From the NCBI GenBank assembly GCA_049325595.1, contig JBMOLF010000010.1:96001-160000 (forward strand): a stretch of 64,000 bases of DNA. The letters are read 5' to 3'. The stretch is from Candidatus Babelota bacterium. GTDB lineage: Bacteria; Babelota; Babeliae; Babelales; Vermiphilaceae. Shown here piece by piece: positions 3,639 through 60,019 of the stretch; position 1 is the stretch's first letter, and the number at the start of each line of letters is the position of its first letter. Made by a program: the position numbers and the translations under genes. Below the pieces are notes generated by a model. That model was not told the DNA's origin, did no database searches, and saw nothing but the letters and a program-made list of their open reading frames with translations.

Positions 3639-3715
3639 GTGCCTGTAGCTCAGCTGGATAGAGCAACGGATTTCTAATCCGTAGGTCATAGGTTCGAATC
3701 CTATCAGGCACACCA
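3639..3715 (+). tRNA. tRNA-Arg(UCU)
   Basis: Acceptor GTGCCTG/CAGGCAC, anticodon arm ACGGA-TTTCTAA-TCCGT, GGTTCGAATCC T-arm, encoded CCA; 77 nt. Confidence 0.97.
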
Positions 3716-5161
3716 AGTTTGACGTTCCGAACAATTTAAGATCAAATCAAATGGCTTTTGCGCCTCGTAGACGATGTTTTCACCATCCACCTGTAAGTTC
3801 GATAGTACGAGCTTAATTAATTGCCGTTTTTCTGTAACTTCAGAACTTTTAAAAATATCATAGGCGTGATTTGTCAGATCTAGTATGTATTTTGCGGTAA
3901 TATAGTAGTTATCTTCTGCCTCTTGTAAGCGCTCTAATTTGAGGGTTACTTCGGCAAGCTGATCTCTAAATGATTGGTAAAATTTGTCATACGCGCTCTC
4001 AGTAATTCTCCCTTTGAGTTTATCAAGGTATAAATTGTCCATCATTTTGGTCAGGGATTGGTGTTGGCCCGTAAGCTCTTTGTATTGTTTCGTTTGAAAA
4101 TCCATCTTATATTGGTGGACTTCATCCAGCGTTTGCTTGATAGTGGCTGCTACGTTGGCTGGCATTTGGAGATTCTTAAAAACTTGGCTGAGCTTTTCGG
4201 TTATTGTTTCTTCACGTAACCAGGCTGCACCATGCTTGCCGTTGTATTGGGTGCAATGGTAATACACAAAACCTTTATGCTTTTCTGGGGTGATTGCCAA
4301 TCCGCAGGTAGCGCATCGAAACATACCTCGATAGATATAGGGCAATCCGGCAAACTTGGCAGGCTTCTTTTTATAGCTTGCTTTTACTTCTTGCACTCGA
4401 TCAAAAAGAGTTTTGGGGATAAGTGGTGGATAACGATGGGGATAAAATTTATCATTTCTTTCCATCACCCCGTAATAGAAATGATTTTTGAGAATATGAT
4501 CGGTAAAGCCTTTAGACCAGGTAACGTTATAATCTTCTTTGAGCTTTGCCCGTAATAAATCCATGGAGTAAACCCCAGTGCCATACAGCTCAAATGCTTT
4601 TTGAACAATATAGGCCTTGTGATCATCAATGATAATATCTTTTTTACCATCCGGTGTTTTTATATTTTTGTATCCTAATGGCGCTTTACCAGGCAACTCG
4701 CCTTTGCGTAGCTTTTGCTCATTGGCACGGCGCACATTGTCGCTAATAGCATCAGAGTAATATTTGGCCAACCCTAAGCTGATGTTAAATTGAAACTTTT
4801 CAGTAGCGGATATCCTACTATTGATAACCTGCCCTTCTGAGACAAAGTGAAGCTCAATCTGATCACACAATGCTTTTTCGTATAATAAAGAAATACGCTT
4901 ATCAAATACATTACGGGAAAGCCGATCAACCTTATCGCAACATACGATAACTTTTTCTTTTTGACTCAAAATTAAATCGATAATGCGATCAAACTCAGAG
5001 CGCTCTAATGAGTAAGCGCTTTCATCAAAACTACAGATGTTTAAAATGGGGTAGCCTTTTTGCTCACAATAGCGCTCAAGGCGGGCAATCTGCGCAGGTA
5101 ATGAGTTACCGGCTTCTCGTTGTTCTTCAGTACTCACGCGGGCAATAAGAATGGCTTTCAT
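3704..5161 (-). CDS. Large serine recombinase (integrase)
   Basis: N-terminal ARVST catalytic Ser, DRLSR, recombinase domain (P.GY), zinc ribbon CATCG...YYHC, coiled coil; TGA stop at 3704-3706 inside the tRNA. Confidence 0.95.
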   Translation of the reverse strand: MKAILIARVSTEEQREAGNSLPAQIARLERYCEQKGYPILNICSFDESAYSLERSEFDRIIDLILSQKEKVIVCCDKVDRLSRNVFDKRISLLYEKALCDQIELHFVSEGQVINSRISATEKFQFNISLGLAKYYSDAISDNVRRANEQKLRKGELPGKAPLGYKNIKTPDGKKDIIIDDHKAYIVQKAFELYGTGVYSMDLLRAKLKEDYNVTWSKGFTDHILKNHFYYGVMERNDKFYPHRYPPLIPKTLFDRVQEVKASYKKKPAKFAGLPYIYRGMFRCATCGLAITPEKHKGFVYYHCTQYNGKHGAAWLREETITEKLSQVFKNLQMPANVAATIKQTLDEVHQYKMDFQTKQYKELTGQHQSLTKMMDNLYLDKLKGRITESAYDKFYQSFRDQLAEVTLKLERLQEAEDNYYITAKYILDLTNHAYDIFKSSEVTEKRQLIKLVLSNLQVDGENIVYEAQKPFDLILNCSERQTWCA

Positions 5162-52940: not shown

Positions 52941-53678
52941 TTATACTTTAATATTTCTTAAGGCTCGTTTGCAAATTTTGGAGGTATTTTCAGTATGAGA
53001 ACTTAAAATCCATTGTGTGCATAATGATTTTACCCATTCAGGATGGTCTTTTCCTGCATCATTTAGCCAATTGCCGACTGATAATTGAACATATCGACTG
53101 GGATCATCTTTTAATTTTTCTAAAAGTGACAATGCTTGCCAGGGTTCTTTTTTCAATTCTTTAATATGGCTACACCAAACACCACGTGGCCGTGTGATTT
53201 CACAAGCAAATCTTCTAATGTTCTCTTTAGAGTTGTGTGCCCAGGGCAATAAATTTTTGATGCCTTGATGCGGATTTTTAATTATTTCTTCTCTTAAGCA
53301 AAGCCATGCCCATTCACGAACACCAAAATGACTATCATTGGCAAGATCATAAATTAAAGTAAGTTTTTCATTAAATGGCTGTGAGGTTTGTGCGATTAAA
53401 AAGCAAGCTATACCCCGGACTGTATCTGAATTATGAGTTTTAAGAAAATCAAACAAAGTAAATTGATTTTTTTGATATATCAATTGAGCGGTAAGAAGCA
53501 TTTTTTTAGTGATACCAAGGGAATTATTGATAGTAAATTCTTTAAATTCTGGCAAAACAGAAGGAATAAGAATATTAAAATCAATGGACAAAGCTTCCAT
53601 CAAATTTTTAGTTTCTAGCTTTCCGGTATTAAGCAAAAATTTTTTTTCTTGGTTAGACACGATGTTTTGCCTTAGCAT
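52941..53678 (-). CDS. DNA alkylation repair protein (HEAT-repeat AlkC/AlkD-like)
   Basis: D.HFGVREWAW, RRFACEITRPRGVWC.HI, DPSRYVQ.SVGNWLNDA.K. Confidence 0.85.
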   Translation of the reverse strand: MLRQNIVSNQEKKFLLNTGKLETKNLMEALSIDFNILIPSVLPEFKEFTINNSLGITKKMLLTAQLIYQKNQFTLFDFLKTHNSDTVRGIACFLIAQTSQPFNEKLTLIYDLANDSHFGVREWAWLCLREEIIKNPHQGIKNLLPWAHNSKENIRRFACEITRPRGVWCSHIKELKKEPWQALSLLEKLKDDPSRYVQLSVGNWLNDAGKDHPEWVKSLCTQWILSSHTENTSKICKRALRNIKV

Positions 53679-53854
53679 GGCCTGCCAGTCGTAGCCGATT
53701 TATACATATTAGCCCGTGCTATGCTTATCCAGGCCTATTGGCTTGGCACGTGTGCGGCATAGCCTTTGGCGACGACGTAAGCTATGCAGGGCATGCTTCA
53801 TTGTTAAAATGATTTTATGGCTGTGCCATGTGTAGTTCGTAGAACGAAACATGG
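53678..53854. repeat. Composite palindromic repeat array 3' of tRNA-Ser(UGA)
   Basis: Proximal unit (minus, 53854-53818) CCATGT-TTCG-TTCTACGAA-CTAC-ACATGG-CACAGCCA; inverted unit 53712-53800; partial unit from 53678. Confidence 0.75.
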
Positions 53855-53943
53855 AGGAGAGGGAGGGATTCGAACCCTCGATTCCCATCTCTGGGAATAA
53901 CGGTTTTCAAGACCGCCGCATTCAACCGCTCTGCCACCTCTCC
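53852..53943 (-). tRNA. tRNA-Ser(UGA)
   Basis: GGAGAGG acceptor, GCGGT-CTTGAAA-ACCGT anticodon arm, long variable arm, GGTTCGAATCC, CCA. Confidence 0.96.
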
Positions 53944-54001
53944 AATTGAGATGCCTTATTATAATATAAGTAAATTCATAGTTTTTCAAATTTTTTTCAC
54001 T

Positions 54002-54577
54002 TTAATAGACTATTTTATCTTTTTTATCCTGCCATAAGGTGAAAAGTTCTTTGGCTTTAGGTTGGCATGTTGTTACGTGAGTAGTTTTAATAAGACGTTG
54101 TTCTTCAGGGGTTTGTAACTCTTGATAAATTAATGAATCATCAAAACCAACCTGAGCAGCATCAAGTTTGGTAGCCGCATAATAAATATGTCGTGGACGA
54201 GCCCAATAAATAGCGCCAAAGCACATAGGGCATGGCTCACAACTAGTATATAATTCACAATCTAAAAGCTGAAAAGTTCCCAATTTTTGACAAGCAAGCC
54301 TAATTGCCATTACTTCTGCATGAGCAGTAGGATCGTTAAGGCTGGTAACTTGATTAGTTCCAACCGCAATAATTTTACCATTATTAACAATGACTGCGCC
54401 AAAAGGACCACCTTTACCTTCGAGCATGCTGTTCTTTGCTGCATCAATAGCAATATTAAGAAAATAAGAAGATTGATCAAAAGGTAGCACTATTTTTTTG
54501 GGTGTTTTTTTTCTTTTAAAAAAATAATAACCAATGAATAAGCTTACTATAACTACCAAATAAATAAGACCAATCAT
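54002..54577 (-). CDS. Nucleoside/guanine deaminase (GuaD-like, CDA fold) with N-terminal TM
   Basis: GGPFGAVIV, DPTAHAEV.AIR, SCEPCPMC, GFDD. Confidence 0.9.
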   Translation of the reverse strand: MIGLIYLVVIVSLFIGYYFFKRKKTPKKIVLPFDQSSYFLNIAIDAAKNSMLEGKGGPFGAVIVNNGKIIAVGTNQVTSLNDPTAHAEVMAIRLACQKLGTFQLLDCELYTSCEPCPMCFGAIYWARPRHIYYAATKLDAAQVGFDDSLIYQELQTPEEQRLIKTTHVTTCQPKAKELFTLWQDKKDKIVY

Positions 54578-54586
54578 TAATTTTCC

Positions 54587-56422
54587 TTACATATTTTGAT
54601 ATGAATCGAATGAAAAATTATTAATCAAATCACAAGCATAGCATGATCCATTACTATTGCTAATGGTATTGCACATTGAGCAAAGTAAATGTCCGCAGTG
54701 TGTATAGAGTGTATTTGGTATTTCTTTTAATTGATAAGCACAACTAGGACATTTACCATGATTAGATTTCCAAATGCAATGAGCAATATATTCGATTAAT
54801 TCTTTATTTTGTGGATCAATAAGATCCAAGGGTGTTTTACCACTATCAGAGCACCATGTCATATCACTGAAAGTAAAGTTTTTAGTTGATAATAGCCATT
54901 GAACCATTTTTGTATTATTTTCGCGGGCTGCTAGATGTAAACCATTTTCGTTATACTGAGTTAGTTTTTTAATCATGCCTCCTGATTTATATAGAAATTC
55001 ACTAATTGCTATGTTGCCACATGCAATAGCCCACAGCAATGGTGTTAATCCATTAACATATTCATTCTCAAGAAGATCCATATTTTCTTGTAGCAATTGT
55101 TCAAGAAATGTTTGATTGTCAAAATAAATTGATCGATGCACTAAGAAGCTTTTATCTATCTTTAGATTGTTATTATTGCAAAGATATTCTGCAATATCAT
55201 TTTTTTGGTTTTTTAAGGCAATATTTAAAATATTATCATGTTCATCTTGGGCTGACAAAACAACAAAACGATGCTTCTCTATTAAGTTCTTTACAACTTC
55301 CCGGCTGCTTTTTTCGCATGCAAATTTAAGATATTCATGCATTTGAATTTCATCTATTTTAAATTTTTCAAGCAAAGCATTAATAGTTTCACATGATTGA
55401 GCTAAAATCGCTTCGTGTAAAGGGGTATGGCCGTTTTTCGCTTGATAGTTATCAAGAGTTATTTTCTTTTTCTCTTTTAAAAATTCTTTTATAAATTCAG
55501 CCTTGCCATTTAAGGCAGCATAGTGAAGTGCGCTTTTATCTTCTTTATCAGTCTCATTGGATCTGTGTTTTATATGACGAAGAATTTTATAAATATCAAA
55601 ATGTCCTTCACGAGCAGCATAGAGTGCTGGTAGTACAGCAAATATATTTCGTTCTGTTTTTAATTGTGGGCGTACTTCTAAAATTTTTGTTACCATCGCC
55701 ATATTACCTGCTTGAGCAGCAAAATGTAGCACATTTTCTTTGTCTCTACTGGTACTTGTTATTTTTATTCTGTCCATCAGATAACTAAATACATCAATAG
55801 AAACTGTTGGTTTTGCCATAGCAGAATGCAATAATGCATTATTGCCGTGGTCATCCGTTTCTAAAGGATCGTAATGAAACTCTTCAATCATGACTGTAAC
55901 CATTTTAAGACAGCCAGCCTTGCATGCCCAATGTAAAGGGGTTTCACCACGATAATTACACAAAAGATGTTTTCCTTTGAAACTATGTAATATTTTAAAA
56001 GCCTCTATTGAATTATTCTTAGCTGCATAATGATGAGGATAATTACCATGGTCATTTGCTTCAAGAGGGTTCATTTCATATTTGTGTATAAGTTCTTCTA
56101 GTATTGATGACTGATTACCTAATGCGGCTAAGTGAAGCAGAGTTGTTTTTTTTGGGGTTGGGAAATTATATGAGATAGTTAAATCAAACAATTCTTTATG
56201 TCCATAAACAGTCGCATGTTGTAGAGCTTCATTCATCTTTTTAGTAAAATCTGGATCACTTGGAAATTGACTTTTTATAGTGCTTAAGATTAGATCAGCT
56301 GGCTTTTTTAAAAATACCATCTCTTTTATATCACAAGCAGTGCTTTGATTTGTTATTGGTGCGTCGTTGGTGTGGCTTAATAAATGAAATAGAAAAATAA
56401 GTACTACAAAATAAATAGTCAT
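54587..56422 (-). CDS. Signal-peptide ankyrin repeat protein with C-terminal RING-HC finger
   Basis: More than 10 ankyrin repeats (GETPLHWAC, GHTPLHEA, GLTPLLWA); C-x2-C-x14-C-x-H-x2-C-x2-C-x9-C-x2-C. Confidence 0.88.
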   Translation of the reverse strand: MTIYFVVLIFLFHLLSHTNDAPITNQSTACDIKEMVFLKKPADLILSTIKSQFPSDPDFTKKMNEALQHATVYGHKELFDLTISYNFPTPKKTTLLHLAALGNQSSILEELIHKYEMNPLEANDHGNYPHHYAAKNNSIEAFKILHSFKGKHLLCNYRGETPLHWACKAGCLKMVTVMIEEFHYDPLETDDHGNNALLHSAMAKPTVSIDVFSYLMDRIKITSTSRDKENVLHFAAQAGNMAMVTKILEVRPQLKTERNIFAVLPALYAAREGHFDIYKILRHIKHRSNETDKEDKSALHYAALNGKAEFIKEFLKEKKKITLDNYQAKNGHTPLHEAILAQSCETINALLEKFKIDEIQMHEYLKFACEKSSREVVKNLIEKHRFVVLSAQDEHDNILNIALKNQKNDIAEYLCNNNNLKIDKSFLVHRSIYFDNQTFLEQLLQENMDLLENEYVNGLTPLLWAIACGNIAISEFLYKSGGMIKKLTQYNENGLHLAARENNTKMVQWLLSTKNFTFSDMTWCSDSGKTPLDLIDPQNKELIEYIAHCIWKSNHGKCPSCAYQLKEIPNTLYTHCGHLLCSMCNTISNSNGSCYACDLINNFSFDSYQNM

Positions 56423-56477
56423 AGAGCTCCCCCTTACAAAGAAGCTTAGACTATAAGGGGGAAAGATTTAAATTATT

Positions 56478-57053
56478 TTATTGCGCATCAGATTCTTGAG
56501 CTAAACGGAAATAGTGTTCAGCGCGCTCTAAATTGTTTTCAGCTTTATAAAGAGCACTTAAATTGATAAATGCTTCATACAACCGATGTTCGTCGGCAGC
56601 GCGATGAAAATATTTTTTTGCCAATTCAAAGTTTTTTTCTTGCTCATATACACAAGCCAACACAAATTGTGCTTGCGGAAAATTGTTAGTATCAGCAGCG
56701 CAATGTAAATAATGTTTTGTTTTTGTAGCATCAGATTGGGAGTCATAAAACAATCCAAGATTTAATTGGGCATGAGCAAGATTATGCTTGTCAGCTGCTA
56801 TGTGTAAATAGTGAAGAGCTTTTTCTGTATTATTTTCGTGGGCATATAAAAAGCCAAGATTATTGTGAGCGCCTGGATGATCATGTTCATCGGCAGCTTG
56901 ATGATAATATTTTTTTGCTAATTCGTTATTGTTTTCATCTTCGTATAATAATGCCAAATTAAATTGAGATTGTGCATCATTAAGTTGATCGGCGCCAAAA
57001 TGAAGAGCTTTTTTATCTTTAGGTTGATGATCTGAGCAATGATTAGTACACAC
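56478..57053 (-). CDS. Sel1-like repeat protein
   Basis: About 5 repeats of A(Q/H).NL(G/A).LY.......A..Y...AAD. Confidence 0.88.
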   Translation of the reverse strand: MCTNHCSDHQPKDKKALHFGADQLNDAQSQFNLALLYEDENNNELAKKYYHQAADEHDHPGAHNNLGFLYAHENNTEKALHYLHIAADKHNLAHAQLNLGLFYDSQSDATKTKHYLHCAADTNNFPQAQFVLACVYEQEKNFELAKKYFHRAADEHRLYEAFINLSALYKAENNLERAEHYFRLAQESDAQ

Positions 57054-57197
57054 GAAAAATCCTTAAGTGAGTTGATGAGTGAAAAATTAATTAATAATTT
57101 ACAAGATTTTTGTATCTATCTAAAGTAGGTAATTTTGATTGTAGAGAAATTTTTGCAATTTTTTATTCAAGATAAATAACGTACTAGTAAAAGAACA

Positions 57198-57361
57198 TGG
57201 CTTGTCAGCTGTAGCGGGCAATGTTTATAGTGTTTAGTCCAGCCTGCGTGTCTCACTTTGTTCGCTTACTTCGGCGGACAGCTTTCGCCACTTTTTTTAT
57301 AATAATTTATTATTCATTTGAAAGAATATGGCTTGCCAGCTGTAGCTTTAGCGAAAGCTGG
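57198..57361. repeat. Composite palindromic repeat array 3' of tRNA-Arg(ACG)
   Basis: Proximal unit (minus, 57361-57329) CCAGCT-TTCG-CTAAAG-CTAC-AGCTGG-CAAGCCA; inverted unit 57237-57288; partial direct copy from 57198. Confidence 0.8.
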
Positions 57362-57435
57362 TGCGCCTAAAAGGAGTCGAACCTTTAACCTTCAGATCCG
57401 TAGTCTGACGCTCTATCCAGTTGAGCTATAGGCGC
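57359..57435 (-). tRNA. tRNA-Arg(ACG)
   Basis: GCGCCTA/TAGGCGC acceptor, TCAGA-CTACGGA-TCTGA anticodon arm, CCA; 77 nt. Confidence 0.96.
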
Positions 57436-57478
57436 ATATATTTCAATAATATATACAACTTTAAGTTGTATCACAATT

Positions 57479-57637
57479 TGGTTGTGCCATGCAAAGTTCA
57501 TAGAACGGTCCGTCTACGCTTATCCGGGTCATCAGACTCGGCAAGCTTCATCGGACAGCCTTCGCAATTATATATCAAAGATATTTTTAATACCTTAACA
57601 TGGCCTGCCAGTCGGAGCCTTTATTGGCGAAGACTGG
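57479..57637. repeat. Composite palindromic repeat array 3' of tRNA-Ser(GCU)
   Basis: Proximal unit (minus, 57637-57601) CCAGTC-TTCG-CCAATAAAGG-CTCC-GACTGG-CAGGCCA; inverted unit 57508-57565; partial unit from 57479. Confidence 0.8.
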
Positions 57638-57725
57638 TGGAGAGAGGGGGATTCGAACCCCCGCGCCCCATTTCTGGAGCTCTTGCTTAGCAGGCAAGCG
57701 CTTTAAGCCACTCAGCCACCTCTCC
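57635..57725 (-). tRNA. tRNA-Ser(GCU)
   Basis: GGAGAGG acceptor, CTTGC-CTGCTAA-GCAAG anticodon arm, long variable arm, CCA. Confidence 0.95.
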
Positions 57726-59932: not shown

Positions 59933-60019
59933 GTCGAGATGGCCAAACTGGCAGACGCACCAGCTTCAAGTGCTGGCGGTGGCAACAACATGCCGGTTCA
60001 AATCGGGCTCTCGACACCA
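59933..60019 (+). tRNA. Degenerate tRNA-Leu (anticodon CAA), possible pseudo-tRNA
   Basis: Intact acceptor GTCGAGA/TCTCGAC and anticodon stem CCAGC/GCTGG, CCA end; mismatches in D, variable and T stems. Confidence 0.75.

Follow-up and report, generated by a model that had tools for sequence, protein, structure and literature searches.

Background

Among hairpin-guided DNA elements, the Ssn/NTS, REP/RAYT and IS200/IS605 systems are, in our best reading, the closest kin of an element that we describe here from the 3' ends of tRNA genes in a Candidatus Babelota bacterium (family Vermiphilaceae). The element came to notice in a stretch of 64,000 nucleotides (nt) of contig JBMOLF010000010.1 (assembly GCA_049325595.1, positions 96,001 to 160,000; hereafter the window), where a hairpin, termed H1, directly follows three tRNAs and incorporates their CCA ends. 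Several of its traits are familiar from the described systems. IS200/IS605 elements likewise have hairpins at their ends, insert directly 3' of a short fixed sequence, possess an end that resembles the target and bases beside the hairpin that are complementary to the junction, and give rise to gene-less derivatives. The REP/BIME/REPIN sequences resemble it as well, being short and imperfectly palindromic units found in either orientation and in mosaics, with a single enzyme gene set against numerous copies that carry none; in the REP families a GTAG or CGTC is conserved 5' of the palindrome. Repeated, structured sequence right behind tRNA genes is further seen in tRNA trailer repeats such as E. 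coli tyrT/rtT (RF00391). The Ssn enzymes, as portrayed in the main text of their report, are single-domain GIY-YIG proteins that bind hairpin repeats as single-stranded DNA, with cleavage a few bases to the 5' side (PMC11893778); in SsnA of Neisseria meningitidis, Y6, Y17 and E64 were mutated (Chenal et al. 2025; PMC11893778). Passages of one further article concern an unrelated palindrome about 10 bp behind Methanopyrus tRNA genes (PMC5217627). In our full-text literature searches, no report of a GIY-YIG/hairpin element located at the ends of tRNA or tmRNA genes came up.

In the present work we document the anatomy of this element, its specificity for tRNA ends, the covariation of its parts, its link to a nuclease gene, and its gain and loss between close relatives. 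The window hairpins are probably the left ends of gene-less copies of a nuclease-associated mobile element that inserts behind the CCA of tRNA and tmRNA genes. We treat the element as acting at the DNA level first, with a role at the RNA level being possible.

Results

ARAGORN calls six tRNA genes in the window. Read on the tRNA strand, the sequence after three of them, tRNA-Ser(UGA), tRNA-Arg(ACG) and tRNA-Ser(GCU), is CCA-xyz-TTCG-(inner hairpin)-CT(A/C)C-z'y'x'-TGG-C(2-3 nt)GCCA, and the units, placed right behind these tRNAs by the original prediction, could be mapped to exact coordinates (Table 1). In all three cases the tRNA's own CCA is the first CCA of the unit and a new CCA stands at its end, and the remaining window tRNAs, Arg(UCU) and two Leu(CAA), are devoid of the motif, just as had been claimed. 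H1 folds as originally drawn, with energies of -8.6 (Ser(UGA)), -9.5 (Arg(ACG)) and -13.3 kcal/mol (Ser(GCU)), the corresponding z-scores of -2.3, -1.0 and -2.8 each being modest alone; the energies of the whole arrays, folded as single sequences, are unremarkable (z -0.75, -0.77 and -2.7). Since single-sequence energies are modest evidence only, the weight of the argument rests on comparison.

The 95%-complete assembly (1.286 Mb in 24 contigs, 34.7% G+C) contains 38 tRNA genes and one tmRNA gene, all of which encode their CCA, and the motif, genome-wide with CT(A/T/C)C as its second constant part, lies right behind ten of these 39 genes: tmRNA, Ser(UGA), Ser(GCU), Ser(CGA), Ser(GGA), Arg(ACG), Arg(CCU), Arg(UCG), Gln(UUG) and Ala(GGC). 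Near-identical units of the TGC type occur behind tmRNA, Ser(CGA), Ala(GGC) and Ser(GGA), on three contigs. When the ten trailers were searched against the genome with blastn, only 12 regions were recovered, ten being the trailers themselves; a diverged copy resides at C17:289-373. From 76 hairpins, 74 of them in other genomes and 2 in this window, we built a covariance model, which gave 14 matches at E<=1; the best nine of these, and ten in all, begin at a tRNA or tmRNA CCA. The enrichment at tRNA 3' ends that would be expected of the element is thus borne out by the scan of this genome and its relatives. Of the other four matches, one is a further module of the Ser(GGA) trailer, one is the C17 copy, one overlaps the 3' end of tRNA-Trp in antisense, and one is probably due to chance. 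The antisense match (C10:180505-180549, minus strand, E 0.036) is weak and stems from the conserved tail TGGCAGGCCA of the element, to which the final ten bases of tRNA-Trp in this genome are reverse-complementary; it may be a coincidence.

In 41 related genomes the strict pattern hit 20, against 0 for the reversed-pattern control, and the covariance model detected the element in 30 of the 41, at 1-18 copies each. Of 19 loci fetched from relatives, 17 begin at a tRNA CCA, behind many different anticodons. As 33 of 37 neighbouring tRNAs encode CCA, most neighbours give no contrast on whether the CCA belongs to the element or to the tRNA. We also scanned public genomes, one per prokaryotic species, with a wide pattern in which xyz and z'y'x' were left unconstrained; this yielded at least 120 loci, their counts per phylum being those of a sample. 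The titles among the matches listed include Alphaproteobacteria (several of them Mesorhizobium), Verrucomicrobiota, Acidobacteriota, Planctomycetota, Nitrospirota, Patescibacteria including Saccharibacteria, Dependentiae/Babeliales, and others. Judged from these sequence matches, the element is not lineage-specific and is spread over many bacterial phyla. Eighty-four of the at least 120 loci begin at the CCA of a tRNA or tmRNA called by ARAGORN, and Rfam models applied to 20 other loci (18 from the wide scan, two from relatives) added four tmRNAs and one cut tRNA. By eye, T-arm/acceptor-like sequence stands upstream of most of the remaining wide-scan loci; some six resemble chance matches. In two alphaproteobacterial two-piece tmRNA genes Rfam places the element after the internal CCA of the acceptor piece. 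At three alphaproteobacterial loci (L074, L077 and L116) the element lies inside a permuted tmRNA gene, right behind the internal CCA of the acceptor piece and in the stretch removed from the precursor.

The outer-stem covariation noticed among the three window copies proved strong across other genomes. Among 105 unique hairpins, the fourth stem pair is Watson-Crick in 89 (shuffle mean 33, maximum 52), distributed over all four types (G-C 42, C-G 21, T-A 18, A-T 8), and the fifth in 94 (shuffle mean 55). In alignment A1, for which the search pattern had fixed four pairs, 96.1% of cells are paired; shuffles give 82.5%, with 0 of 500 attaining the observed value, and sliding the partners gives 21-47%. 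Both sides change in six of ten pairs. The triplet xyz recurs beyond the hairpin. An exact 8-mer complement of CA-xyz-TTC is found 2-68 nt downstream at 38 of 117 loci, as against 20 of 2106 when the triplets of other loci are used, and in 34 of 121 cases xyz appears again in the three nucleotides behind the terminal CCA (permutation mean 7.9, maximum 17). With the 3' arm of H1, the downstream complement and the post-CCA triplet all tracking it, xyz covaries with three other segments.

That no mobilising enzyme lies in the window had been stated at the outset and holds, and the search for a nuclease flanked by the motif found a candidate of a kind that the original prediction had named, a small GIY-YIG gene of 80 codons behind the tmRNA, with the same leader. 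The order behind the tmRNA is H1, spacer, a complement of the H1 5' arm (anti-H1), a second hairpin (H2), the GIY-YIG open reading frame (ORF), and a hairpin ending in GAGCCA. This is the only small GIY-YIG gene of the genome, the other PF01541 match being a 443-residue open frame on contig C11 rather than a mini-gene, and its copy is the one nuclease-bearing copy as against nine nuclease-less arrays. Pfam PF01541 covers residues 1-72 of the 80 with an E-value of 1.4e-14, NCBIfam models gave nothing on this protein, and its best solved relatives in the PDB are UPF0213 BH0048 (E 6e-6) and SLX1 (E 2e-4). Homologs of the nuclease occur in 27 of the 41 relatives, in 1-5 copies, several with stop codons, and 22 homologs keep the catalytic positions, namely Tyr, Tyr, Arg, His/Asn and Glu. 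Of 28 nuclease loci fetched, 19 have a tRNA or tmRNA in the same orientation at a distance of 74-436 nt upstream; among the other nine, two are at contig starts. Thirty-two leaders, from H1 to the ORF, have a common architecture, with anti-H1 being exact in 29, and in relatives H1 units flank the ORF on both sides. Across the 41 genomes, which are not independent of each other, 25 have both the hairpin (by the covariance model) and the nuclease, five the hairpin only, two the nuclease only, and nine neither. Among the at least 120 distant loci, the nuclease ORF is present within 400 nt on the strand of the element in 26 cases and on the opposite strand in none.

Gain and loss of the element can be followed between close relatives. 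In the syntenic genome G001, of the same genus, it is missing at all three window tRNA sites: there the CCA of tRNA-Ser(GCU) is followed by 9 nt and then by tRNA-Arg(ACG), and the next gene starts 35 nt after the Arg CCA and 21 nt after the Ser(UGA) CCA. The 9-nt spacer, GAAAT(T/A)TA(C/T), is still recognisable 3' of the 190-nt insert in the present genome, which places the left boundary exactly after the CCA and makes xyz element-borne. A near-identical contig from another sample, with 10 differences in 3575 nt, joins 57505 to 57628 and so links the point just behind the TTCG of H1 to the orphan half-hairpin. The nested hairpin at 53748-53778 is likewise missing from contigs X3 (depth 2) and X4 (depth 3.7), which come from relatives and have 13 other letters. 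Joints skipping 57436-57633 and 57430-57638 were left unused; their sides are short (28 and 20 nt) and they may come from other organisms.

The window copies share one anatomy, with H1 being followed by an AT-rich spacer, a covarying anti-H1 that complements CA-xyz-TTCG(C), and the inverted hairpin H2. The latter is the design of H1 turned around, namely stem, G(A/T)AG, C..G, CG(A/T)A and stem, with the loop often housing nested hairpins. The arrays end in an orphan 3' half of H1 that closes with CCA, and the GC-rich stretches 3' of the hairpins are the same modules in all copies of this genome.

Table 1. Features of the three tRNA-associated arrays of the window and the linked nuclease gene (window positions unless a contig is given; CM, covariance model)
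Feature	Position	Strand	Support or remark
tRNA-Ser(GCU); own CCA 57637-57635 forms the first three pairs of H1	57635..57725	-	ARAGORN; Rfam tRNA, 63.4 bits
H1, GTC type: CCA-GTC-TTCG-CCAATAAAGG-CTCC-GAC-TGG-CAGGCCA	57601..57637	-	CM E 1.6e-8
AT-rich spacer, Ser(GCU) array	57566..57600	-	opens with TGTTAAGG, the conserved spacer start in relatives
anti-H1 GCGAAGGCTG, Ser(GCU) array	57556..57565	-	complements H1 5' arm, one G:T
H2, Ser(GCU) array	57508..57555	-	inverted; nested insert in loop
122-nt segment missing from near-identical contig of another sample	57506..57627	.	side 255; also seen in X5
Orphan 3' half of TGC-type H1, Ser(GCU) array	57479..57507	-	ends CACAACCA
tRNA-Arg(ACG)	57359..57435	-	ARAGORN, Rfam tRNA
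H1, GCT type: CCA-GCT-TTCG-CTAAAG-CTAC-AGC-TGG-CAAGCCA	57329..57361	-	CM E 1.5e-8
anti-H1 GCGAAAGCTG, Arg(ACG) array	57279..57288	-	perfect complement of CAGCTTTCGC
H2 module, Arg(ACG) array	57237..57278	-	near-identical to module behind tRNA-Arg(UCU) in genome of another family (L154)
Orphan 3' half of H1, Arg(ACG) array (GCTAC-AGCTGA-CAAGCCA)	57198..57215	-	second right-end copy
tRNA-Ser(UGA)	53852..53943	-	ARAGORN, Rfam tRNA
H1, TGT type: CCA-TGT-TTCG-TTCTACGAA-CTAC-ACA-TGG-CACAGCCA	53818..53854	-	CM E 4.9e-4; ends CACAGCCA
anti-H1 TGAAGCATG, Ser(UGA) array	53792..53800	-	one G:T against CATGTTTCA
H2, Ser(UGA) array	53713..53791	-	nested hairpin inserts at two levels
31-nt nested hairpin, Ser(UGA) array	53748..53778	.	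missing from low-depth contigs of two other samples
Orphan 3' half of GTC-type H1 (GGCTAC-GACTGG-CAGGCCA)	53678..53696	-	right end of Ser(UGA) array
Small GIY-YIG gene, 80 aa	C7:69559-69798		200 nt behind tmRNA

Some observations concern the neighbourhood of these arrays. The gene 3' of the Ser(UGA) array (52941-53678, minus strand) has as the start of its longest ORF an ATG at 53678 that overlaps the last base of the element, and alignment with the G001 ortholog suggests that the true start is a GTG about 19 nt downstream, around 53659. The region 54002-57053 (minus strand), between tRNA-Arg(ACG) and tRNA-Ser(UGA), holds three genes, by eye those of a Sel1-like repeat protein, a 611-residue ankyrin-like repeat protein and a deaminase-like protein. 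As the two tRNAs are only 13-126 nt apart in more distant relatives (L018, L026), the tRNA cluster has been split by gene insertion in this genus. The second tRNA-Leu(CAA) of the window, at 59933-60019 (plus strand), scores 33.3 bits with the Rfam tRNA model, versus 59.7 for its neighbour, and may be a decaying duplicate.

Discussion

The full element, as we would reconstruct it, has the following parts: 1) H1, the 5' arm of which is made of the target CCA and the element-borne xyz. 2) An AT-rich spacer, anti-H1 and H2. 3) A gene for a single-domain GIY-YIG protein of about 80 residues. 4) A terminal hairpin ending in ...GCCA. By analogy with the Ssn enzymes, the nuclease would recognise the hairpins as single-stranded DNA, and the z'y'x'TGG arm, by pairing with CCA-xyz, would set where the DNA is cut and joined. 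The target would be a stem followed by ...CCA, be it the acceptor end of a tRNA or the tail of an earlier element, and this would account for the tandem and nested arrays. A more far-reaching form of the proposal, which we regard as doubtful, is that these elements constitute a new class of single-strand DNA transposons without an HUH transposase, in which an 80-residue GIY-YIG protein that reads a conserved hairpin and a 6-nt DNA guide arm, z'y'x'TGG, pairing with CCA-xyz for cutting and joining, would make any stem-...CCA in unwound DNA a target.

Comparison with the described systems delimits what the element might be. Its likeness to the Ssn enzymes, assessed from the published repeat pattern and the description of the system, extends to a single-domain GIY-YIG protein of 80-94 residues with its gene flanked by its own hairpin repeats, to Y5, Y17 and E63, which approximate the positions of SsnA Y6, Y17 and E64, and to a C right after the palindrome, conserved here and critical for SsnA binding according to the main text of the Ssn report (PMC11893778). 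A GIY-YIG protein of similar size with flanking hairpin repeats, as reported there, would also suit a nuclease-plus-repeat system of the Ssn/NTS kind that has been domesticated or serves the host, for instance by modulating recombination or DNA uptake, and whose repeats merely gather behind tRNA genes. We find this improbable: the SRM pattern has 0 matches in the genome where shuffles have 1-4, it overlaps no H1 in 146 H1-bearing loci, and only three of 170 loci have any match to it, none on H1. Further, the element is present in 1-18 copies per genome rather than hundreds, at one exact position (the CCA end) rather than clustered around genes, with a two-hairpin leader containing a covarying triplet, whereas the main text of PMC11893778 leaves tRNA unmentioned. 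From IS200/IS605 the element departs in having no Y1 HUH transposase, its only linked gene being that of a GIY-YIG hydrolase, and in its apparent junction pairing, which to judge from the sequence would be plain Watson-Crick over 6 bp and include the CCA of the target; the left boundary right after the CCA, set by the empty sites of G001, and the hairpins at both ends are traits that it does share with that family. No Y1 gene lies next to any copy of the element in this genome.

The original prediction had proposed, as one of two options, a REP-like element that targets the CCA of tRNAs and ends in a new CCA. This option fits the evidence: the insert starts exactly after the CCA by comparison with the empty sites, and near-identical copies behind unrelated tRNAs and the tmRNA, together with indels between strains, agree with it, but this is not a classical REP/RAYT system. 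We consider mobilisation by a RAYT (a Y1 HUH transposase) of a classical REP/BIME family very improbable, even though the units are palindromic, nested and present in both orientations, the opposite strand reads G(T/A)AG beside the inner hairpin (CT(A/T)C on the tRNA strand in alignment A1), and the genome has PF01797 matches. The two intact Y1 genes belong to near-identical IS200-like copies with different terminal hairpins of their own, the other two are decayed, and none of the four is flanked by H1. No RAYT accompanies the copies, which are undispersed and occupy one class of genomic position, with no intergenic spread among the 12 blastn regions and 14 covariance-model matches, ten of them at tRNA or tmRNA ends. 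RAYT/IS200 was accordingly rejected as the mobiliser, the Y1 genes being either IS200-like with different ends or decayed. The intact IS200-like elements, which encode a Y1 transposase of 155 residues, lie at C15:98579-98941 and C19:7018-7380, and the decayed copies, at C9:90303 and C17:2221, are of a second type. Tyrosine or serine integrases offer a comparably remote account, which would make the units remnants of att sites, or duplications of tRNA 3' ends, that go back to integrase-borne islands. In its favour, integration classically occurs at tRNA and tmRNA ends, tRNA-Arg(UCU) of the window adjoins a large serine recombinase gene, and the Gln trailer has a second copy of 68 nt located 5.4 kb downstream. 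Yet the units copy no part of a tRNA 3' end beyond the CCA, one and the same 33-nt design is found, with covariation, across phyla, none of the three tyrosine recombinase genes is near these tRNAs, and the serine recombinase adjoins a tRNA that lacks the element. The tyrT/rtT repeats, too, re-copy the 3' end of their own tRNA, whereas the element shares only CCA and has no Rfam match.

Integrase-related sequences were nonetheless seen at other tRNA ends. The serine recombinase, of 485 residues (3704-5161, minus strand), has a 3' end that overlaps the 3' end of tRNA-Arg(UCU) (3639-3715), and C-terminal remnants of it with an adjacent inverted repeat occur behind tRNA-Glu (C7:8363) and tRNA-Asp (C10:282507), at C17:373-480 and at C15:~86540. 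These remnants are a second, integrase-borne family that uses tRNA ends in this genome. The 68-nt tRNA-Gln trailer (C15:81114-81183) has its 94% identical copy at C15:86567-86634, beside an inverted repeat of the serine-recombinase type, and the pair may delimit an island between direct repeats.

The alternative that deserves most attention, though we deem it unlikely, places the function in RNA: H1 and its downstream complement would form alternative structures in a co-transcript of tRNA and leader, which would govern how the tRNA 3' end is freed, how the nuclease mRNA is expressed from the tRNA promoter, or both, with spread being secondary. The element is always on the sense strand of the tRNA and starts at the CCA; across phyla, the 5' arm of H1 keeps two pairings that exclude each other, the pattern of an RNA switch; and the RNA minimum-energy fold of 32 leaders has the long-range helix in 12 and the local H1 in five. 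The spacer is rich in A and U, and genes for RNase E/G and for an enzyme of the CCA-adding type are present; the 95%-complete assembly yielded neither RNase R/II nor a bona fide RNase Z, so that a hairpin abutting the CCA would need a dedicated route. On the other hand, stem mismatches on the tRNA strand of 127 hairpins comprise 12 G:T against 22 A:C, not the excess of G:U that a selected RNA helix should show; H2, as the same motif inverted, suits recognition on both DNA strands; and the orthologous tRNAs of G001 work without the element. The second option of the original prediction, an RNA that would sequester the CCA, finds no favour in these mismatch counts. Nor does it match any Rfam family: in the gathering and E-value modes, the window, the region and loci of eight relatives gave only tRNA, tmRNA and sub-threshold chance matches, with nothing on the element at E<=5. 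In the RNA runs found, at most 0.07 of the sampled words were contained.

Several points weigh against a mobile element of the kind we favour. To our knowledge GIY-YIG enzymes hydrolyse DNA and are not known to join strands, which leaves the pasting step without a candidate. Cutting, excision and insertion are steps proposed by analogy, the substrate of the nuclease may be single-stranded DNA, double-stranded DNA or RNA, and the conserved, covarying leader before the ORF also fits an RNA element. The repeat of CCA-xyz is missing from the ends of the window copies, and the 122-nt difference between samples could be a deletion between short repeats rather than an insertion. Five of the 30 hairpin-bearing relatives have no homolog of the nuclease by the query used, and the pattern of the wide scan was derived from this very finding.

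Conclusion

If a nuclease-associated mobile element is the correct reading, a tiny and uncatalogued combination of nuclease and hairpins sits at the 3' ends of essential tRNA and tmRNA genes across many phyla. It would be a tRNA-end-specific addition to the hairpin-guided DNA elements and a candidate programmable single-strand nuclease; should the new transposon class also prove true, the four-way covarying triplet would amount to natural, re-programmable target recognition by DNA-DNA pairing. For annotation, it matters that the longest ORF of the gene behind the Ser(UGA) array begins inside the element. The finding also raises the question of how tRNAs are matured when their CCA is locked in a trailer hairpin.

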